Made by a program: the position numbers and the translations under genes. Under the pieces are notes generated by a model that ran no database searches, was not told where the DNA came from, and worked only from the letters and a program-made list of their open reading frames with translations. 64,000 nucleotides of DNA from Smithellaceae bacterium (lineage in GTDB: Bacteria > Desulfobacterota > Syntrophia > Syntrophales > Smithellaceae): assembly GCA_049514435.1 (NCBI GenBank), contig JBEKVB010000003.1, forward strand, positions 72,131-136,130. Direction: 5' to 3'. Shown here piece after piece: positions 20,351 through 52,256 of the stretch (its first letter is position 1; every line of letters starts with the position of its first letter).

Positions 20351-20402
20351 GTAGACAACTATCACTAAATTCAAATTTAAAAGTTGTCTACAAGTTGTCA
20401 AC
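20351..20402. repeat. 52-bp element with three GTTGTCnAC boxes (copy 1, abuts the stop codon)
   Basis: GTAGACAAC ... AAAAGTTGTCTACAAGTTGTCAAC. Matches the 21442-21491 copy at about 37/52 positions, with identical box spacing. Confidence 0.8.
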
Positions 20403-21421
20403 TACTTTTCAGCGCGCCTGATCATGAGCAGAATGTTTTCATTGGCATTTATCACTGTCACCTTGATGTCTTTATGTGCGTTCTTCCAGACGCGGAAGAT
20501 TTCGTCGGCAAAGGCCTGGCCTACGGTTTCCACGTCTTTGAAGTCAAGTTCGATGGTGTTGAATTTCTCCAAACCCGCCAAAATTCTACGGGCCTGCGAT
20601 CGGGATACATAGTCGTTATTTTGACGATACAACTTTACCTTCACGCCTGTTTTACTAAACTGGAAAGACTCGTCAGTGTATTGATTAAACAAATCGGATA
20701 GCGTCTTTTTTGATTTCAAGCCCAACACAAAATCAACCTTTGTTCCCCTGGATGATTGAATATCCTTTACGTAAATATCCTGACCGACATTGTCGAAAAC
20801 GATCTTTTTCCCAAAGCTCTTGATGGTCAATCGATCTGCTATTTTTGATGTAAAAAAGATTCCCTCGCCGCTGTGCCCTTCCGGCGCCGTGGTTTCTTTC
20901 CCTTTAAGCAAATCCTGAATAGCATCCATTGTAGAAACCAGCCGCTTCTTTTTCATAATATTGTTAAAAATGCCGACGCCCTGATCCGCTACAGCAAAAC
21001 GAATATCCATTGATGTTTTCGTGACGATCAGATCAATCTTTTCCGATGAAGAATGTTCAATAGCATTGTTGAGCATTTCGGTAAAAGCGTAATCGATGAT
21101 TGAAGACACATTACCTGCCAGCCTTTGAAAAATAGAGCTTTCCTGCTTGATTTGGCTTAGCACCTTGTCTTCGGCCAGACTCTTGTTGGTGATGATTTTT
21201 CTAACTCTCGAAGGTCTTGCCGTGAGCGCGCCTTTAGCAGATGCAATAACATAATGCGCTTGATTGGCCTTGCCCATCAGAACGATCAAGCCTTCGTCGG
21301 TCAGCTTCTTTAAAAATCTATGCACGTATGCCCGCGAAAGGCCAGTTCTGCTCACAACATCGGCAGCTCTAGCTTTTTCTTTTTTACTGATAATATTGAG
21401 GATTATTTTTTTTATGTCCAT
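20402..21421 (-). CDS. winged-HTH + GHKL-type ATPase-like + STAS-like (DUF4325-type) protein
   Basis: N-terminal wHTH (ARAADVVSRTGLSRAYVHRFLKKLTDEGLI). N-box-like EMLNNAIEHS and DQGVGI. C-terminal ELDFKDVETVGQAFADEIFRVW resembles the STAS-like DUF4325. Confidence 0.65.
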   Translation of the reverse strand: MDIKKIILNIISKKEKARAADVVSRTGLSRAYVHRFLKKLTDEGLIVLMGKANQAHYVIASAKGALTARPSRVRKIITNKSLAEDKVLSQIKQESSIFQRLAGNVSSIIDYAFTEMLNNAIEHSSSEKIDLIVTKTSMDIRFAVADQGVGIFNNIMKKKRLVSTMDAIQDLLKGKETTAPEGHSGEGIFFTSKIADRLTIKSFGKKIVFDNVGQDIYVKDIQSSRGTKVDFVLGLKSKKTLSDLFNQYTDESFQFSKTGVKVKLYRQNNDYVSRSQARRILAGLEKFNTIELDFKDVETVGQAFADEIFRVWKNAHKDIKVTVINANENILLMIRRAEK

Positions 21422-21441: not shown

Positions 21442-21491
21442 GTAGACAACTTTATTGTAAACTAATTTTAAAAGTTGTCAACAAGTTATCT
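21442..21491. repeat. 52-bp element with three GTTGTCnAC boxes (copy 2, upstream of the start codon)
   Basis: GTAGACAAC ... AAAAGTTGTCAACAAGTTATCTAC. Same orientation as copy 1. Confidence 0.8.
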
Positions 21492-21627
21492 ACAATAGCG
21501 GGGATGGATAGGGTTGGTTATTATCAAGGAAGCGGCGGAAATAGGTTGAATTCATACAATGATATTCGATAAGCTTGATGAGGCGAAAATAGAACCATCC
21601 CGTTTATCGTTAGTTGACGACGTAACA

Positions 21628-22179
21628 TTACAATCCCAAATCTCCTGCTACTCCCTTCATCGCTTCCAAGCCAAGCTCAATAAATGCATCCAATTCCAAA
21701 CCGATCTCACTGCACTTTGCGATCTGCTCTCGATTCGCGCCCGCCGCAAAGCGCTCTTCTTTGAACCGCTTGCGAATAGATTTGGCTTCCACGGAGGCCA
21801 GCTTTTTATCGGGACGAATTAGCGCTCCGGCAGTGATGAGCCCGGTCAAAGGATCGGCGCAAAAGAGGGCTTTATCCATCAGCGACATACAGGGCTCTCC
21901 GTGCGCTTCGTTGTGGACGAGAATTGCACGACAGATAGCTTCACTTGCGCCCAACTGTTTTGCCATTTCCGCCCCTGGCTTACTGTGGACTTTCAAATCG
22001 GCATGGGTCAGCTCAACATCGATATCGTGAAGCAGACCCGCCAGCCCCCACTCATCTTCGTTTTCGTTGAACCGCCGGGCAAGCGCGCGCATAATGGCTT
22101 CCACAGCCAGCATATGCTTTATGAGGTTTTCATTCTTAACGTTTTCTCTGATGGCTTTCAGTGCCGTTTCCCGATCCAT
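21628..22179 (-). CDS. HD-domain phosphohydrolase
   Basis: 183 aa with H...HD motif (LLHDIDV) and downstream His/Asp residues. Immediately downstream of abfD. Confidence 0.8.
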   Translation of the reverse strand: MDRETALKAIRENVKNENLIKHMLAVEAIMRALARRFNENEDEWGLAGLLHDIDVELTHADLKVHSKPGAEMAKQLGASEAICRAILVHNEAHGEPCMSLMDKALFCADPLTGLITAGALIRPDKKLASVEAKSIRKRFKEERFAAGANREQIAKCSEIGLELDAFIELGLEAMKGVAGDLGL

Positions 22180-22206
22180 AAGTGCCTTTCTATTGTTCTT
22201 TGCTCC

Positions 22207-24956: not shown

Positions 24957-25133
24957 TTATACCTCTTGGGATGGTAGATGACTGTTGGTAAAAGCCAGCC
25001 CCCACTCTTCTTCATTTTCAGTGAACCGCCGGGCAAGCGCCCGCATAATGGCTTCCGTAGCCAGCATATGCTTGATCAGGTTTTCATTCTTCACATTTTC
25101 TTGGATGGCTTTCAGTGCCGTTTCCCGATCCAT
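24957..25133 (-). pseudogene. truncated duplicate of the HD-domain gene (first ~47 codons)
   Basis: Translates MDRETALKAIQENVKNENLIKHMLATEAIMRALARRFTENEEEWGLA. This is near-identical to the N-terminus of 21628..22179. It then diverges and stops. Confidence 0.85.
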
Positions 25134-25192
25134 AAGTTCCTCTGCCCAATGAGGTAGTTTTGGTTATTCTGTGACCAGTCTAAAAAAATAGA
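25121..25192 (-). repeat. promoter/leader repeat R1, copy a
   Basis: TTTCCCGATCCATAAGTTCCTCTGCCCAATGAGGTAGTTTTGGTTATTCTGTGACCAGTCTAAAAAAATA. Near-identical copies at 36266-36335 and 42238-42312. Confidence 0.85.
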
Positions 25193-28269: not shown

Positions 28270-28415
28270 GATTATGTTTATTACCGATTGAAATGTTGTA
28301 TGAATTGGGAAAATAAGAAAAACAACATTACAGGAAGAAGTGCTTACTGACTACACCTTTTTATTAACAATTGCCAAGTTTAAATTGAATCGTGGATTAC
28401 CAGTTGAAAGAGAGT
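28270..28415. repeat. cassette-boundary repeat R4, copy A
   Basis: TATTAC-CGA-TTGAAA at 28279 and GATTAC-CAG-TTGAAA at 28395 (116 bp apart). They flank the core ACAGGAAGAAGTGCTTACTGACTACACC. Confidence 0.85.
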
Positions 28416-29835: not shown

Positions 29836-29940
29836 TTTTACCACATGTTAAGTTAGATTTCAGCAGTATTTTGATTATTTCCAATTGAAATGTTGCATGT
29901 AGGAGTTGAATTAGAAAATCAGGACTTCAGGAAGTTATAC
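29836..29940. repeat. cassette-boundary repeat R4, copy C (partial)
   Basis: TTTACCACATGTTAAGTTAGATTTCAGCAG plus GATTATTTCCAATTGAAATGTTGCAT. The core is truncated after CAGGAAGTTA. Confidence 0.75.
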
Positions 29941-29985
29941 TTAAAAAAATCAATGAACGTAAGCACGCTTTATGTATTAAGTTTC

Positions 29986-30883: not shown

Positions 30884-31062
30884 TTTTACCACAAGTTAAT
30901 TTAGACTTCAGCAGTTTTTTAATGATTACCAATTGAAAGGTTGTATAAATATCAAGACTGACGAGTTGCGGATAACAGGAAGAACTGCTTACTGAAAACA
31001 CCTACAAAGAAACAATTGTCAGTTTTAAAATGATTGAGGATTACGGATTGAAAGGTGCTATA
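30884..31062. repeat. cassette-boundary repeat R4, copy D
   Basis: TTTACCACAAGTTAATTTAGACTTCAGCAG. GATTAC-CAA-TTGAAA at 30924 and GATTAC-GGA-TTGAAA at 31039 (115 bp apart). Core ACAGGAAGAACTGCTTACTGAAAACACCTAC. Confidence 0.85.
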
Positions 31063-31819: not shown

Positions 31820-31965
31820 TTTAACGATTACCGTTTGTAACCTAGCATAAAATTGAAAATTTGAAAAATAAGGATTACAGGAAGAAAGAGATTATTTGTT
31901 TAACCTACAAGTCCACACATGCTACGTGAAAAATAGATTGAAGATTACCATTTGAAACACTTGTA
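31820..31965. repeat. cassette-boundary repeat R4, copy E (diverged)
   Basis: GATTAC-CGT-TTGTAA at 31826 and GATTAC-CAT-TTGAAA at 31943 (117 bp apart). Diverged core ACAGGAAGAAAGAG...AACCTAC. Confidence 0.7.
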
Positions 31966-34400: not shown

Positions 34401-34590
34401 TGCTTACTGTCCGAAAAAATCATCTCATTGTGGATAACAATCGATAAAGATTACCATTTGAAAGAAAGTATGCCCATGAAAAATCCCAAATGCTCCCTTA
34501 CAGGAAGAAGTGCTTACTGACTACACCTACTAAGTTTCAGTTTTACGTGGCTCTTAAAATTGAAGATTACTGGTTGTAAGGTGCTAACAT
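34401..34590. repeat. cassette-boundary repeat R4, copy F
   Basis: GATTAC-CAT-TTGAAA at 34449 and GATTAC-TGG-TTGTAA at 34565 (116 bp apart). Core ACAGGAAGAAGTGCTTACTGACTACACCTAC. A partial extra core TGCTTACTGT sits at 34401. Confidence 0.85.
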
Positions 34591-34680: not shown

Positions 34681-35844
34681 TTAATAAATAAATATCTTAA
34701 CTTCTTTCATAAACGAATATGTTAATATTTTTCCGTCTTTTGTGCGAATCTTTACCATGTCACCGCTAAAACTGATTACTTGTCCTTCAATGACATTCCC
34801 GTTCTGTAATTCTATTCCCTTTAGCCCCTCTATTGCTTGGTAATGCTTTTCTGAATCCACCGGACGATTGGTAACTGAGATATCCTTCTTAGGAACTTTT
34901 ACTTTATATTTGCGTAGTCGCGTACTGTTGTTGTCCTTCTTAAATTGATTTAAAAGGGCAATCACAGAATCAGCATCGCCCTCGTTATAAGTCTTCAGCA
35001 GTGAATCTCTCAAACGCCTTGGTTGTTTTTGTATCCACGCCACAATTCTTCCTGAATCCCTTAAATTATCAAAGTCTGGATGAGCGCTTCTTATGGTATT
35101 AAAATGTTTTTCTTTAGCAATTCTTTCTAAATCTTCATTTGAGGTTGGACCAGTTGGTTGATCTGGTACTGGAGCTGGTGCAGGTGCCGGTTGCGCAACG
35201 GGTGCTTCGACTTTAGGAGTCGCTACCGATACTAGCTCTTCCCTTTTGTTTAGGTTTGCAATTGTGAACAGAATGCCAGCGAGTACGATAATAATTAGTA
35301 TAGATATAATGACAGCTTTATTAAGAGTTTTAGCTTTTAGCTTATTTTCTTCTATATGAGGTTTGCCAACTGCTCTTTGCTGTGGTGATAGTCTCGAAAG
35401 AGTTTCTGCTTTTACCTTTCTTTCTTCTATGTGAGGTGTGCTAACTGCACTTTGCTGTGGTGATGGTCTCGAAAGGGTTTCTGTTTTTACCTTTGTTTCC
35501 TCTATGTGAGGTGTGCTAACTGCACTTTGCTGTGATGATGGTCTCGGAGGTGGTTCCTCGGTTATCTTTGAAACTTCTCGCGGCGGAACTTTTTGTTCTA
35601 ATATATTTTGTTTGGCAACTTTAACCGGAGGTAAGGCCATAGTGCAGTGCCAGCATTTTATTGCATCATCTTGAAGCTCTCCATCACAGAATGGACATTT
35701 TTTCATAGAAACTTTTGGCGGCGGAACTTTTTGTTCTGACGTATCTTGCTTGGCAGCTTTAACCTGAGGTAAAGTCATAGTGCAGTGCCGGCATTTTATT
35801 GCATCGTCTTGAATCTCTCCATCACAGAATGGACATTTCTTCAT
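34681..35844 (-). CDS. single-pass membrane protein with duplicated N-terminal zinc ribbons and a triple internal repeat
   Basis: Two copies of KKCPFCDGExQDDAIKCxHCTM, three copies of SRPSPQQSAVSTPHIEExKVK, one TM helix and a conserved-looking C-terminal domain. Likely start is MKKCPF. Confidence 0.65.
   Translation of the reverse strand: MKKCPFCDGEIQDDAIKCRHCTMTLPQVKAAKQDTSEQKVPPPKVSMKKCPFCDGELQDDAIKCWHCTMALPPVKVAKQNILEQKVPPREVSKITEEPPPRPSSQQSAVSTPHIEETKVKTETLSRPSPQQSAVSTPHIEERKVKAETLSRLSPQQRAVGKPHIEENKLKAKTLNKAVIISILIIIVLAGILFTIANLNKREELVSVATPKVEAPVAQPAPAPAPVPDQPTGPTSNEDLERIAKEKHFNTIRSAHPDFDNLRDSGRIVAWIQKQPRRLRDSLLKTYNEGDADSVIALLNQFKKDNNSTRLRKYKVKVPKKDISVTNRPVDSEKHYQAIEGLKGIELQNGNVIEGQVISFSGDMVKIRTKDGKILTYSFMKEVKIFIY
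35330..35550. repeat. intragenic ~66-bp tandem repeat (3 copies)
   Basis: Repeated CGAAAG(A/G)GTTTCTG(C/T)TTTTACCTTT...TCTATGTGAGGTGTGCTAACTGCACTTTGCTGTG units. They encode the PQQSAVSTPHIEE repeats. Confidence 0.8.
35582..35844. repeat. intragenic ~125-bp tandem duplication (zinc-ribbon module)
   Basis: 35582-35706 and 35720-35844 are near-identical (CATAGTGCAGTGCC.GCATTTTATTGCATC.TCTTGAA.CTCTCCATCACAGAATGGACATTT). Confidence 0.8.
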
Positions 35845-35961
35845 CGCTGCTCCTTTAAAACACAAAACCCTGCGCTCTTTTAATAAACTTAGTTTTTCCA
35901 GATGTGTTGAACATCATTATAGCACATTATTTTTTTTAAAAAAGGAGGGAAACAGAGCATC

Positions 35962-36025
35962 CTTTATTACGGGTTGAAATATTGTGTGAATTGGAAAAAA
36001 CATAAAAACAACATTGTAGGAAGTT
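35962..36025. repeat. cassette-boundary repeat R4, copy G (partial)
   Basis: TATTAC-GGG-TTGAAATATTGTGTGAATTGGAAAAAACATAAAAACAACATTGTAGGAAGTTA. Closely matches the left half of copy A, then breaks off. Confidence 0.8.
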
Positions 36026-36082
36026 AGATTCAGAGATCGCTTTTTTAGAATTGGGATCGAAGCGACGCCGCGCAGCGCCCGC

Positions 36083-36265
36083 ATAATAATGAGACTCGAC
36101 GACTATAGGAGTCGTTAGTCGTAGTGAGACTCGCTGAAAACGAACAAAGTGAAGTTTGAAGAGGAAGTCGAACTATCCAATAGCCAAAGGCTATTGGGAA
36201 TTATCCCAGAAGCGTAGTACCCTGAAGGGCATCTACGACGACGTGGGATTTCTACCTTATGTAAT
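36083..36265 (-). repeat. modular hairpin array R2, short copy
   Basis: Modules begin with TAATGAGAC/TAGTGAGAC. Includes the perfect hairpin CCAATAGCC-AAA-GGCTATTGG and the nested stem CCCA..CGTAG..CCC-TGAA-GGG..CTACG..TGGG. Collinear with 41917-42237. Confidence 0.8.
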
Positions 36266-36335
36266 TTTCCCGATCCATAAGTTCATCCACCCAATGAGAT
36301 GGTTTTGATTATTCTGTAACCAGTCTAAAAAAAAT
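36266..36335 (-). repeat. promoter/leader repeat R1, copy b
   Basis: Same sequence as 25121-25192 and 42238-42312. On the minus strand it contains AGGA-N5-ATGGATCGGGAAAATTACATAAGGTAG (MDRENYIR-stop). Confidence 0.85.
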
Positions 36336-37051: not shown

Positions 37052-39295
<2,244 letters not shown>

Positions 39296-40524: not shown

Positions 40525-40748
40525 AAGTACTCCTGTATCGTAATTTGCTGCTGCGATCAATCCATGATCGCAAGCTGAAAAAACCATCTCCCCAAAAGAA
40601 AACCGAAACTACAGTGTGATTATTGTTTGTCCGCTCTGCGCAGTCAAGTATTTCTATTTGCAAATTATACCAAAAGAGTTACCTGATTACTGATCATTTA
40701 CAACTGCCCCTAATTGTCCTTTTGAATAATACGGGTGTTCCCCTCATT

Positions 40749-40889
40749 ATTGTTGAAACTCTAATTCCGAAAGCGAAGCATAACGGAATTGGTAAGTTGA
40801 ACAATCCCGTGAAGCGGAGGGTTTAATACCCCGCAGCTTGCTACGGAATCTGTTTCCAAAGCTTGCTTTGGGGTTCATACCCGTGATTT
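40749..40889. repeat. structured repeat R3, copy a (overlaps the 3' end of the 40841 gene)
   Basis: AAACTCTAATTCCGAAAGCGAA...CGGAATTGGTAAGTTGAACAATCCCG...GGAGGGTTTAATACCCCGCAGC...GCTTTGGGGTTCATACCCGTGATTT. Collinear with 41741-41875. Confidence 0.8.
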
Positions 40890-41716
40890 CTAAAAAGTTT
40901 AATCTGTTCCTGATAGATACTCATCTCTTCAGGAGTGACTTTTTCCAAAACACACTCTTCCACCATATAACTTGTTACTTTATCATCAAATTGTATCCTG
41001 GCGCTGCTGTTCCCGGTCACCTCAAGTGCTACTCTGTCTTTTACATATAAAAGCGTTCGTCCTCCGGATTCCAGTTGATGATAAACCATATTTTTTTTCG
41101 GCGTCGGCAGGCCTATCATTTCAGTGTGTTCTTCAAAGTTCTGACGACCAATTTCCGTTTTAACCCCGTCCACAAGAAATAAAACTACGCCTAAAGGCAT
41201 CATTGTTACCATGCCGGCAACTGTAGTTGTCATACCCACGGCAAAACTCGAATAATCCGTAAATGTTCGGGAACGAAGCTCTAAAGGAGTCAATTTACGA
41301 AATTTCAAAACAATGCGACAGCCATAGAAATCCTTAAAGCTTTCCTCCAACTGATAATATTTTAATGCACGCACAATAAATTCGGAGACATGACCAAGGT
41401 AAAGTTTTTCACCGGGCGGCAATTTTACCGATTCCGGATTAACATCGCGCGACAACTTCAGACAACTGAAAAGTGTATCCTGTGCTCCCGGTTGTGTTGC
41501 GCACCCAGGCAACAGAATCGCATTGATTTCACCTCTGGTGGCACGCGCTTTTACCTCTTCTTCATAAGGGTCCATAGTTCTATCGATATAATTCTGATAA
41601 AATGCACCACACCCTGACAAATTAATAACAAGAATGATGCTGCTCAGCAGTAAAATTACCAATCGTACTGCTGTCTTTTTTGTATTTGGTAAAGAATATA
41701 ATTTATACTTGAGCAT
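40841..41716 (-). CDS. lipoprotein, unknown function
   Basis: 291 aa with lipobox LSGC after a hydrophobic N-terminus. No recognised domain. Confidence 0.6.
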   Translation of the reverse strand: MLKYKLYSLPNTKKTAVRLVILLLSSIILVINLSGCGAFYQNYIDRTMDPYEEEVKARATRGEINAILLPGCATQPGAQDTLFSCLKLSRDVNPESVKLPPGEKLYLGHVSEFIVRALKYYQLEESFKDFYGCRIVLKFRKLTPLELRSRTFTDYSSFAVGMTTTVAGMVTMMPLGVVLFLVDGVKTEIGRQNFEEHTEMIGLPTPKKNMVYHQLESGGRTLLYVKDRVALEVTGNSSARIQFDDKVTSYMVEECVLEKVTPEEMSIYQEQIKLFRNHGYEPQSKLWKQIP

Positions 41717-41740
41717 GGCAGGTTCTACTTATTGGATTTT

Positions 41741-41875
41741 ATTGTAAAACTCCAATTACGAAAGTGAAATCCGGCGCATGCCGGACGAAGCGTATCGGAA
41801 TTGGTAAGTTGAACAATCCCGCAAAGTGGAGGGTATAATACCCCGCAGCGAGCTTTGGGGTTCATACCCGTGATT
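41741..41875. repeat. structured repeat R3, copy b
   Basis: Same blocks as copy a. It has an extra palindromic insert TCCGGCGCATGCCGGA in the first hairpin loop and lacks a 27-bp segment present in copy a. Confidence 0.8.
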
Positions 41876-41916
41876 TAGGGTAAAAAATATATGAATAACG
41901 TCTTTTTGTCAAAAAT

Positions 41917-42237
41917 ATAATGAGACTCGCTGATAATGAGACCCAAGCTTCAGAAACAAAGTGAACTGAAGCTTGCTGGTCGTAATGAGACTCGCTGAAA
42001 ACGAACAAAGTGAAGTTTGAAGAGGAAGTCGAACTATCCAATAGCTAAAGGCTATTGGAAATTAATGAAACTCAAATGTTACAAACACAGTGCAGTAACA
42101 TTTGTTAGTTGAATTATCCCGCCGCAGGCGGAGGATATCGCAGATATCCGTGGTATCCCAAGAAGCGTAGTACCCTGAATAACCTGAAGGTCACCATGGG
42201 GGCATCTACGACGACGTGGGACTTCTACCTTATGTAA
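41917..42237 (-). repeat. modular hairpin array R2, long copy
   Basis: Five modules starting (A)TAATGAGAC or TAATGAAAC. Perfect 9-bp hairpins AAGCTTCAG/CTGAAGCTT, AAATGTTAC/GTAACATTT and CCAATAGC/GCTATTGG. Loops share AAAC-A(A/C)AGTG(A/C)A. Confidence 0.8.
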
Positions 42238-42312
42238 TTTTCCCGATCCATAAGTTCCTCTGCCCAATGAGATGGTTTTGATTATTCTGCAACTAGTCTA
42301 GAAAAAATAGAA
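42238..42312 (-). repeat. promoter/leader repeat R1, copy c
   Basis: TTTTCCCGATCCATAAGTTCCTCTGCCCAATGAGATGGTTTTGATTATTCTGCAACTAGTCTAGAAAAAATAG. Confidence 0.85.
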
Positions 42313-42334
42313 CCATTGTCCTTATTATCCGTCT

Positions 42335-42847
42335 TCATGGTATTTGAAGAGGACGTATCTTTGCTTGAACAAGATTGATTAAAGTTACACAATCATCATA
42401 GAACACATCAATCCGTTTAGCGTCTGTCTCACTCGGGAAATTCATATGAGCGACAACATTTCTTGGTAGTCTTAGCTCTTCAATGCCGAGCATCCATTTG
42501 TCCAAATCAGGGATTACTGGAATAAAAAGATTTGCGTTGGCACGGATTATTTCATTAAGGTCTACCAAGTCAATGTAATAAATCCCATGTTTACCGGGTT
42601 TTCCATGCCAAGATTTTTTGAGGTAATTATCTTGAAAGTGCTTTGCCTTTTTTTGGATTTCCTTATCGACGGCAATAATCCACCAATCTGGTGGTATTTG
42701 AACCGACAGCACTGTGTGAATGATGACACGAAATATATTTTCGATACAATACAACTTCCAATATGTTTGGCGTCCAATTAGTTTGCCGCTATTACCAACA
42801 GTACGATAATCAAATGGTGACAAACGAAAGTCTCTTGCAACGGGCAT
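42335..42847 (-). CDS. Swt1-like HEPN-domain protein (putative RNase)
   Basis: 170 aa. N-terminal helix WKLYCIENIFRVIIH and C-terminal R-x4-H motif LRLPRNVVAHMNF. Paralogous to the C-terminal half of 43780..44541. Confidence 0.65.
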   Translation of the reverse strand: MPVARDFRLSPFDYRTVGNSGKLIGRQTYWKLYCIENIFRVIIHTVLSVQIPPDWWIIAVDKEIQKKAKHFQDNYLKKSWHGKPGKHGIYYIDLVDLNEIIRANANLFIPVIPDLDKWMLGIEELRLPRNVVAHMNFPSETDAKRIDVFYDDCVTLINLVQAKIRPLQIP

Positions 42848-43542: not shown

Positions 43543-43653
43543 ATTTTATGATCGCACCCGGTATAACGGAGCGGCGACCGAACAACGTTTACATGTATCT
43601 TGTACCAAGGGTCTTCGCTCCTCTGCTTTGCGGAATTGGAGTTTCACGAAAAT

Positions 43654-43693
43654 CACGTGCTTAAATATACTCGCAATTTTCTTGATTTCAATT
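43654..43693 (-). promoter_or_regulatory. conserved sigma-70-type promoter module R5, copy 1
   Basis: Minus strand TTGAAA (43691-43686), 16 nt spacer, TATATT (43669-43664), embedded in a 40-nt block. The block is near-identical to 51988-52027 and partly to 47238-47260. Confidence 0.6.
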
Positions 43694-43779
43694 ATCTTTT
43701 GTCATCGACGCGTGTTTTTGCAGCATGTCTCCCAGAATTTGGCCTTGATTAAATAAAACCGTCCCCATTATTCACCCAA

Positions 43780-48377: not shown

Positions 48378-48549
48378 AGAATTACGGAAAGCGCAAACCC
48401 AACAGCCCCTGTTTTTCCGGATTATTTCTTAATTGCTACACTGAAAAAGTCGAAGCGTCAAATGACATTTTTAGTCTCCCGGTATTCGTAACCTGAAGGT
48501 CATCATGACCAGGGGTTCGCTGCGGGAAAGATAGAGCAGGATGAATCTC

Positions 48550-51879: not shown

Positions 51880-51954
51880 AGTTCACCTCTCTTTTTTTAT
51901 TTTACGGACGTGTGACCTCGTGTGACCTTCAGGTTATTAGGTTATGCACTCGGT

Positions 51955-51980: not shown

Positions 51981-51987
51981 AAAAAAC

Positions 51988-52027
51988 CACATGCTTAAAT
52001 ATACTCGCAATTTTCTTTATTTCAATT
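51988..52027 (-). promoter_or_regulatory. conserved sigma-70-type promoter module R5, copy 3
   Basis: Minus strand TTGAAA (52025-52020), 16 nt spacer, TATATT (52003-51998). The 40-nt block is near-identical to 43654-43693. Confidence 0.6.
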
Positions 52028-52256
52028 CTTTTTTTAAACGAAGGCTGAAATCTGATTTGTGTCCAAGATTTAATTGACATACAGAACTGAATTTCTTATA
52101 CTCGCCTTTAAAGAGAAAGCTCTTATCAATTCAACTTAATTTACAACAGCTAAGCTTCCAGTTCTGCCAAAAGATACCCGGCGTCTGATCATTATGGAAA
52201 TATTCTCTTTTTCGTGAATCGTGTTTGCAATTGCCGGTGGAGGTCCGGCGAAGAAA

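Follow-up and report, generated by a model that had tools for sequence, protein, structure and literature searches.

The hairpin-rich DNA around 42 kb in the window (the whole 64,000-nt stretch analysed here) most probably represents a local cluster of lineage-specific interspersed palindromic DNA cassettes, broadly REP/BIME-like or MITE-like, with a proposed single-stranded DNA type of spread; the probability of this reading is put at roughly 0.7. The arrays look like a genomic repeat rather than a regulatory RNA, and the REP/BIME-like family to which they belong is apparently undescribed, since full-text literature searches found no description of such repeats in Smithella or Syntrophus. Their building blocks are a 54-nt two-tier cassette bounded by TAATGA and GAATTA, several shorter AAYTATCC-hairpins and a mini-hairpin of about 20 nt lodged in loops. 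A preliminary description of positions 41917-42312 had instead proposed a promoter with a peptide leader, followed by a dedicated structured RNA. The sequence does show all of the features described, far above chance: hairpins, motifs in common, indels that respect helix boundaries and, at 36 kb, a short collinear copy. Their interpretation held only in part.

The array starts at about 41744, not at 41917, and includes F- and G-type modules (41744-41880) that recur at 40751-40889. The F-type module (41744-41813, + strand; GTAAAACTCCAATT...GGAATTGGTAAGTTGAACAAT), identified by repeat search, belongs to the 54-nt cassette family and has an extra small loop hairpin, TCCGGCGCATGCCGGA. It gives a weak covariance-model match at 41748-41813 (17.5 bits), and its intact paralogue at 40751-40804 reaches 31 bits. 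The G-type module (AATCCCGCAAAGTGGAGGGTATAATACCCCGCAGC..TTTGGGGTTCATACCCGTGATT; 41814-41880, + strand) is 88-93% identical to 40774-40889 and forms the array end in the loci L023, L041, L025 and L026. Further along the + strand lies a cassette head, TAATGAGACTCGCTGA (41918-41933), which corresponds to the 5' 16 nt of a C-type cassette. The same head stands 5' of A-type cassettes in about 20 other loci, and in two of the loci studied (L027 and L056) it covaries with a distal C-type tail. An A-type 54-nt cassette follows on the same strand (41934-41988; stem CAAGCTTCAG/CTGAAGCTTG, loop AAACAAAGTGAA; 66 bits, E = 1.6e-12), which the alignment shows to be missing from the 36-kb copy. The C-type cassette at 41989-42036 (+), with tandem G.A mismatches in its stem, is found in both places (36122-36175 in the 36-kb copy); the two score 42 and 57 bits with the covariance model, and the repeat pair is 97% identical. 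Also common to both copies, and recurring in many loci, is the E-type short hairpin CCAATAGCTAAAGGCTATTGG with its AAYTAT linkers (42037-42062, +).

The 36-kb copy also lacks the A3-type 54-nt cassette (42063-42116, +; stem AAATGTTAC/GTAACATTT; 72.2 bits, E = 6e-14) and the H-type pair of short hairpins (42117-42156, +), CCCGCC-GCA-GGCGG and GGATATC-GCA-GATATCC, both with G-N-A triloops, the second at 42133-49; the pair is also found in L027 and L056. Such whole extra modules appear as clean blocks in the alignment of the two copies. The last hairpin is the D-type CCCA..GCGTAG / CGACGTGGG (42157-42221, +), whose nested stem CCCA..TGGG spans 42157-42220 and which carries a 21-nt mini-hairpin insert, TACCCTGAA..GGGCATCTACGA. 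A second mini-hairpin, TAACCTGAAGGTCACCATGG (42180-42199, +), is nested in the loop of the first and corresponds to a 20-column gap against the 36-kb copy. An insertion in the loop of this last hairpin had been correctly located beforehand, with a length of 20 nt and not of 21 nt as then given. The short collinear copy (36083-36335, +) consists of a variant cassette, the C cassette, the E hairpin, the D hairpin with one mini-hairpin insert, and the R1 block. A separate small array of the same family (40751-40889, +), made of F and G modules, overlaps the 3' end of an ORF at 40841-41716 on the minus strand.

The motifs on which the modular view was founded are borne out by counting. The element TAATGARAC, said to open the modules, occurs six times in the window against 1.2 expected, and none of 100 shuffles reached six; its positions include 41918, 41934, 41983 and 42063 in the 42-kb array and 36087 in the 36-kb copy. 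The shared loop motif AAACAMAGTGMA recurs in the same units, starting at 41954, 42003 and 42083 in the 42-kb array and at 36142 in the 36-kb copy. The perfect stems listed earlier lie where they were claimed, for example AAGCTTCAG at 41945-53 with CTGAAGCTT at 41966-74, and AAATGTTAC at 42074-82 with GTAACATTT at 42095-103. Both copies fold better than their shuffles, with z = -4.05 (minus strand) and -5.06 (plus strand) for the 42-kb region and z = -3.25 for the 36-kb copy folded as DNA. These motif counts and fold z-scores, together with covariance-model E-values down to 6e-14, rule out chance, and dozens of further genomes carry these cassettes. It is thus hardly conceivable that the hairpins are a chance or compositional artefact, or ordinary segmental duplicates with random indels, even though the 36-kb and 42-kb stretches are true duplicates of each other, with a fragment of a gene in what they share.

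This gene fragment accounts for the R1 block, which occupies 42222-42312 on the minus strand. Positions 42222-42240 are a repeat-derived linker; ATGGATCGGGAAA, at 42241-42253, is a relic of the start of an HD-domain gene, and 42254-42312 correspond to sequence upstream of that gene. The gene itself, of the HDIG family, is intact at 21628-22179 on the minus strand. A third and longer relative of R1 at 24994-25190 comprises a 148-nt 5' fragment of the HD gene plus the R1 upstream sequence, whereas the 36-kb and 42-kb copies retain just 13 nt of HD coding sequence before running into repeat sequence. R1 aligns with this pseudogene fragment at 25 kb and with the beginning of the complete HD gene. 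It also aligns with sequence 5' of the complete HD gene in L032, a locus from a related MAG, which shares with the window a PAC2-family gene (95% identical) and the HD gene (90%). R1-like sequence lies there directly 5' of that HD gene; the site matching the 36-kb copy has 29 codons of HD sequence joined to an array, and an array with an R1 remnant adjoins the PAC2 gene at the site matching the 42-kb copy.

The proposed 8-codon leader MDRENYIR is thus a truncation product, ATGGATCGGGAAA joined to repeat sequence, because ATGGATCGGGAAA is the start of the HD gene and because the relative L032 keeps R1 beside that gene. On these alignments R1 is a truncated relic of the HD-gene 5' region, neither a dedicated promoter nor a leader. 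The short ORF is not conserved as a coding unit, since L032 has a different and longer HD fragment at the equivalent place. The motif AGAGGAA stands 3 nt from the ATG, and not 4 nt as first given. In addition, the minus strand of R1 yields nothing like a sigma-70 promoter in a consensus scan, which also speaks against transcription of the array from this block. An HD-gene 5' fragment was joined to an array and later copied, with part of that array, to a second place, giving the 36-kb and 42-kb copies.

Comparison of many copies brought some order into the apparent diversity of the modules. Those designated A, A2, A3, A4, C and F, seemingly different, form one family of fixed length: of 79 distinct core-cassette copies, 63 are exactly 54 nt long and align without a gap. 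Each cassette begins with TAATGA, a 4-bp basal helix with a 2-nt bulge and a 10-bp helix, and continues through an internal loop into a 2-bp helix closed by an N-N-A triloop, before ending in GAATTA. Paired cells amount to 90.4% in the alignment of the 63 copies; shuffles give 69.4%, and sliding the partners never more than 35%. Changes on both sides are seen in 14 of the 16 base pairs of the cassette, and compensatory cells number 205 against 61 in shuffles, these counts being taken over paralogous copies and hence referring to sequences, not to independent events. The earlier idea that the hairpins are structurally constrained, with indels at helix boundaries, is well supported by this strong covariation, part of which could nevertheless stem from template-switch correction of DNA palindromes instead of selection. 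The internal mismatches of the cassette are tandem G.A pairs on the TAATGA strand, and its ends form imperfect terminal inverted repeats, TAATGAGAC / GTCGAATTA, complementary at 7 of 9 positions. Cassettes had also been considered by eye as small coding ORFs, in view of the TAATG stop-start overlap; this was dropped, as substitutions track the pairing and arrays are found in every orientation.

A covariance model built from the gap-free alignment of the 63 54-nt copies detects seven cassettes in the window, all on the plus strand: 42063-42116, 41934-41988, 36122-36175, 41989-42036, 40751-40804, 36087-36121 and 41748-41813. Rfam gave no relevant match, either for the whole window at the gathering threshold or for 40600-42400 at E-values up to 10. 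Nothing was found for retrons, attC sites or type III antitoxin repeats either, in agreement with the preliminary description, which could not place the structure in a known family.

A pattern scan for TAATGAGAC-N(6-16)-AACAAAGTGAA, with one genome per species, returned 61 loci. About 50 of them belong to Smithella, to Syntrophaceae and to related delta-proteobacterial MAGs, a single genome having up to about 10. The scan places the window itself among Smithella/Syntrophaceae; an archaeal source, at first suggested by PAC2 and TrmB-like Pfam hits, was rejected on this ground. In these roughly 50 loci, the motif TAATGAGAC-N12-AACAAAGTGAA belongs to arrays that combine these modules in varying orders. 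BLAST with a library of 11 modules drawn from the loci then delineated 115 arrays in the 61 pattern-matched loci plus the window. They are composed of A- to H-type modules, separated by TAATGA or AAYTAT linkers, in an order that differs by locus. Within an array the modules have essentially a single orientation (+n/-0 or +0/-n), with rare single exceptions. The arrays are intergenic; the few overlaps with ORFs all involve short or over-extended ORFs. A first density figure of about one array per 4-7 kb was discarded as inflated by ascertainment. In 586 kb of loci of the Smithellaceae type, chosen originally with another repeat in view, the covariance model found 16 further cassettes, or about one per 37 kb. 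Density varies strongly among related genomes, and cassettes are much sparser in Smithella M82. Comparison by blastn with phage and plasmid collections gave no match in either; among viral contigs there was a single chance-like hit.

The arrays have no preferred orientation and no tie to the direction of transcription. Among 63 arrays classified by their flanking genes, 20 lie between divergent genes, 19 are sense to both neighbours, 17 antisense to both, and 7 lie between convergent genes. Nor could any association be found between array orientation and local GC skew (Fisher p = 1.0), this skew being a weak proxy for replication direction. At least nine arrays start precisely where the stop codon ends the gene upstream. 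The supply of stop codons was also considered as a general rule, and rejected: it is real in single cases, but out of 154 cassettes only 9 terminate an ORF of 80 codons or more (5.8%; background 3.3%).

One strand of the cassettes is clearly distinguished by its loops. Over 14.9 kb of arrays, the TAATGA strand contains 63 copies of GCGNAGC and a single copy of the complement; in the same way, R-N-A triloops number 88 and T-N-Y triloops 14. Triloops of the C-GNA-G type, as in d(GCGAAGC), form exceptionally stable DNA mini-hairpins. Stem mismatches show no wobble bias (21 G.T against 17 A.C) and are thus uninformative about one-strand folding. Because the loops are strand-asymmetric and the arrays indifferent to the direction of transcription, it is more likely that one DNA strand, the TAATGA strand, is the one that folds. 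Cassettes would then fold as hairpins on this strand, with their G/A-N-A triloops and tandem G.A internal mismatches.

The same data bear on the possibility that the arrays encode a structured RNA, whether a multi-hairpin leader, a UTR element or a small RNA acting as a protein sponge or as a stabilizer against RNases. Transcription would start at the R1 promoter relic or come in from neighbouring genes, and hairpin number would vary as it does in modular RNAs. The conservation of both pairing and unpaired loop nucleotides would fit such an RNA. Both window copies stand between R1 and a downstream minus-strand gene, where they could be 5' UTRs, some other arrays lie behind promoters or at UTR positions, and a head and tail around two inner hairpins would make a multi-helix junction. 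However, a riboswitch or cis-acting leader is expected to have a fixed orientation and place ahead of a coherent set of genes and a conserved architecture at orthologous sites, whereas orientation is here random and content turns over, with no Rfam match. The 17 arrays antisense to both neighbours on the loop-asymmetric strand include the 42-kb array itself, and the strand that R1 would transcribe in the window bears T-N-Y loops, not G-N-A. Furthermore, G.U-compatible mismatches are not in excess on either strand, and array content is not conserved at orthologous sites. An RNA function of the arrays appears therefore unlikely. The preliminary description had itself accepted that a mobile or repeat element would speak against its RNA leader, and what is found is a dispersed family at more than 100 places, with no gene-orientation preference and a fast turnover at orthologous sites.

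This turnover could be followed directly by comparing two loci, L025 and L026, whose orthologous intergenic regions have flanks 90-94% identical. At one site the array content has been replaced completely. Elsewhere, a 75-nt two-cassette array is present in one genome and missing in the other, without target duplication. In a third case the exact 54-nt frame that holds a C-type cassette in one genome holds an A-type one in the other, between neighbouring modules that are about 95% identical. Module content also differs between the window and L032 at both shared sites. Cassettes are thus gained, lost and swapped one by one between close relatives, without target-site duplication. Arrangements of the form head(C)-A-B-tail(C) are frequent, with head and tail covarying, and they show that cassettes are nested inside one another. 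Exchange could proceed by gene conversion between the conserved linkers.

Replacement within a fixed 54-nt frame might also be expected if the arrays were domesticated sites for a host protein (nucleoid, gyrase or IHF-type), read as double-stranded or cruciform DNA and kept for chromosome organization rather than for mobility. The linkers TAATGA, GAATTAT and AAYTATCC and the loop bases are conserved, the arrays are clustered and intergenic, and the BIMEs of E. coli, for which such binding has been proposed, provide a precedent (references in PMC12306157). A positional function is hard to reconcile with content, or even presence, differing at the same site in close relatives, and with a density so variable between related genomes; the strong strand asymmetry of the loops is moreover unexpected for a site read as double-stranded DNA. 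Such a role as the reason for the arrays is accordingly regarded as quite improbable.

The 20-nt block at 42180-42199 turned out to be a copy of a recurrent mini-hairpin, in which 4-8 nt accompany a core of TAACCTRAAGGTCA or TACCCTRAAGGGCA. The window plus the loci, about 0.5 Mb in all, contain 31 occurrences, mostly within hairpin loops. The loops concerned are those of cassettes of the A/C, D and F kinds, those of REPs with a GTAG tag, and those of unrelated hairpins whose stems are very different; repeatedly, one mini-hairpin is nested in the loop of a second. The D hairpin provides a complete series, being empty in L032 (CCCAGGAGCGTAGCGACGTGGGA), filled with one insert at 36 kb (as also in L017, L014 and L045), and carrying a second insert nested in the first at 42 kb. 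Other copies in the window lie at 48489 and 51936, the latter again nested in another. The tail of the mini-hairpin is variable, often ..CTACGA, which reads GTAG on the other strand. No target-site duplication accompanies these nested insertions.

Cassettes and mini-hairpins would then spread as single-stranded DNA, beside or into existing hairpins, moved by an HUH/Y1-type transposase acting in trans or by a similar enzyme. A hairpin substrate of such IS200/IS605-like enzymes would be expected to insert without duplication, to have hairpin ends and a strand-specific structure, and to show an orientation bias relative to replication. For the cassettes, no duplication was seen and the loops are strand-asymmetric, and no link to GC skew was found at the local scale compared. 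GTAG-tagged REPs (GTAGG-stem-CCC/TCC-stem) are abundant in Smithella genomes, among the matches listed. One MAG has a gene that matches the NCBIfam REP-associated tyrosine transposase (RAYT) model NF047646 with 107.9 bits (cut-off 80) and is flanked by GTAG REPs. Smithella sp. M82 and a MAG that carries arrays have homologues with 59-62% identity, likewise flanked by GTAG REPs. Enzymes of a kind that can move hairpin DNA are therefore present in these organisms, as candidates only where the cassettes are concerned. The flanks of the RAYT genes in L145, L186 and L189 consist of GTAGGG..CCC.. REPs and not of TAATGA cassettes; in L189 an array lies about 300 nt beyond the REPs, without flanking the RAYT gene, and Smithella M82 has a RAYT together with much sparser cassettes. 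The window contains neither a RAYT nor a REP of the GTAGGG-N7-CCC-N7-CC type, and tblastn over the first 0.44 Mb, with approximate E. coli RAYT and IS200 TnpA queries, gave no match.

A bolder proposal, to be taken as tentative and rather doubtful, is that the 54-nt cassette and the mini-hairpin make up a new kind of single-stranded DNA mobile cassette system, with insertion at hairpin apices or of units behind one another. This would cover the absence of target duplication, the co-oriented arrays and the fixed-frame exchange, with the RAYT of the lineage acting in trans, or another enzyme, as the driver. If true, the mini-hairpin would be among the smallest mobile DNA units.

Among known systems, the arrays appear by analogy to work most like BIMEs and other mosaic REP clusters. 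Like the BIMEs of E. coli and other Enterobacteria, they are high-copy extragenic mosaics of a few types of imperfect palindrome, joined by a small set of conserved linkers in locus-specific combinations at UTR-like positions. The definition of a REP as a short imperfect palindrome in many extragenic copies agrees with the number and density of the arrays and cassettes found. In contrast, the REPs of a BIME alternate in orientation, whereas cassettes are co-oriented within an array. BIME REPs measure 20-40 bp and bear an unpaired GTAG/CGTC tag, while the core cassette, 54 nt long, folds into two tiers, is bounded by TAATGA and GAATTA and has no such tag. The arrays also comprise more module types, nesting included. 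With REPIN-RAYT systems the cassettes share a hairpin-centred structure, insertion without target duplication and restriction to a lineage, and their spread across relatives suggests that the family is probably vertically persistent. Related genomes, among them one that carries arrays, have a genuine RAYT flanked by GTAG REPs, and the GTAG reading of the mini-hairpin tail is a further likeness. Yet the mobile unit of a REPIN, moved by a single-copy RAYT, is an inverted REP doublet, seen here only for the separate GTAG REPs, and a RAYT is flanked by its own repeat, whereas the cassettes do not flank the RAYT genes examined.

Other comparisons are instructive for single features. REPs inserted in larger 'target palindromes', and mosaic intergenic arrays of interleaved repeat families in Neisseria, have been described (Di Nocera et al. 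2013, PMC3733652). They likewise place small palindromes in the apex of larger ones, in other sequences and taxa; the insert described here differs in being about 20 nt long, in nesting within itself and in occupying several unrelated hairpin types. MITEs such as Correia, RUP and Nezha are, like the cassettes, short, non-autonomous and intergenic, with imperfect terminal inverted repeats and an occasional supply of stop codons. They produce a target-site duplication, whereas none is seen at the single clean filled/empty pair (L025/L026), and the cassettes are much shorter, form head-to-tail arrays and have no known parent insertion sequence. Closer in taxonomy are the multicopy intergenic nucleotide sequences catalogued in Geobacter genomes (Aklujkar et al. 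2009, PMC2700814). These are also short palindrome-containing intergenic repeats of a delta-proteobacterial lineage, a likeness drawn from their description; they are described as single elements, in contrast to the co-oriented cassette arrays.

For the 42-kb region, a false lead is removed, with no new riboswitch or leader peptide at the array. Any influence of the arrays on neighbouring genes, through UTR structure or new stop codons, would be secondary. In practical terms, short-read assemblies break at such arrays, spurious small ORFs and altered gene ends arise from them, and RNA-motif screens based on covariation among paralogous copies can be misled. What emerges is an elaborate palindromic repeat system, apparently undescribed, in syntrophic alkane-/propionate-degrading bacteria of the Smithella type. 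Its natural series of empty, filled and doubly filled sites, together with the in-frame swaps, provides rare clean material on how REP-like elements spread and are tolerated.

Two copies of a 52-nt repeat, at 43649-43700 and 51983-52034, look like a promoter, reading TTGAAAT..N..TATATT on the minus strand. Downstream of one copy lies GTGAAACTCCAATT, the head of the two-tier hairpin cassette (43634-43645), and downstream of the other are nested mini-hairpins, around 51936. Since the promoter-like repeats stand upstream of them, these cassette-head and mini-hairpin pieces are probably located in 5' UTRs. Additional copies of the mini-hairpin, a recurrent unit of about 20 nt (TAACCTGAAGGTCA), were observed at 48489-48510 and 51915-51950, not within any cassette array, the latter with one copy nested inside another, as ACCTAA[TAACCTGAAGGTCACACG]AGGTCACACG. 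A further array module, of the G type, covers at 40841-40889 the final ~16 codons of a lipoprotein-like ORF (40841-41716, minus strand), the C-terminus and stop codon of which are encoded by repeat sequence.

The 5' part of the HD-domain gene, together with the R1 sequence upstream of it, recurs at 24994-25190, where 148 nt are 91% identical to 22040-22187. This copy is a pseudogene fragment of the HD-domain gene, with no hairpin array adjoining.

A second kind of palindrome cluster is present in this lineage, namely the runs of GTAG-tagged REPs of Smithella sp. M82, each with eight co-oriented copies within ~700 nt (L077 3923-4661; L095 1891-2572). Clusters of such REPs, of the forms GTAGGGACTGTTC-CCC-GAACAGTCC, GTAGGGCGCGTTC-CCC-GAACGCGCC and similar, were also found on either side of REP-associated tyrosine transposase genes (L145 3160-3951; L186 1850-2930; L189 2180-3130), in an Elusimicrobia-labelled MAG, Smithella sp. 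M82 and an array-bearing delta-proteobacterial MAG. At L189, one GTAG REP is interrupted by reversed mini-hairpin copies.

Two segments of the window were probably acquired. The catalase-peroxidase-type gene at 37055-39295, with two domains of Pfam peroxidase, has a G+C content of ~60%, compared with a window mean of ~43%, and probably arrived by horizontal transfer. The segment 42335-46000, of low G+C (0.34-0.39), carries small helix-turn-helix genes and is probably an acquired island adjoining the array. Its 170-aa ORF matched nothing in Pfam or NCBIfam, and relatives of it, at 71-75% identity, were found only in two MAGs, one of Ignavibacteriales and one unclassified.

Repeats of other types are also present. 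Within the zinc-ribbon ORF 34681-35865 (minus strand), a 75-nt unit occurs three times in tandem (35323-35547) and a 138-nt unit twice (35562-35837), both in frame. ORF 20402-21421 is flanked by a 52-nt repeat pair (20351-20402 and 21442-21493), the GTAGACAACT...AAAGTTGTCTAC palindromes of which resemble operator sites. A conserved block of 60-79 nt, ATTACCGATTGAAATGTTG...ACATTACAGGAAGAA, is found six times (28280-28358, 29877-29955, 30925-31003, 31827-31886, 34450-34528 and 35966-36044). Read along the minus strand, each copy closely precedes a gene encoded on that strand, and the block looks like a common promoter or operator. The genes behind it (saccharopine-dehydrogenase-like, FGE-sulfatase-like, Cu/Zn superoxide dismutase, 4Fe-4S/HTH protein and zinc-ribbon repeat protein) possibly form a stress regulon, next to the Fur-family and catalase-peroxidase genes.
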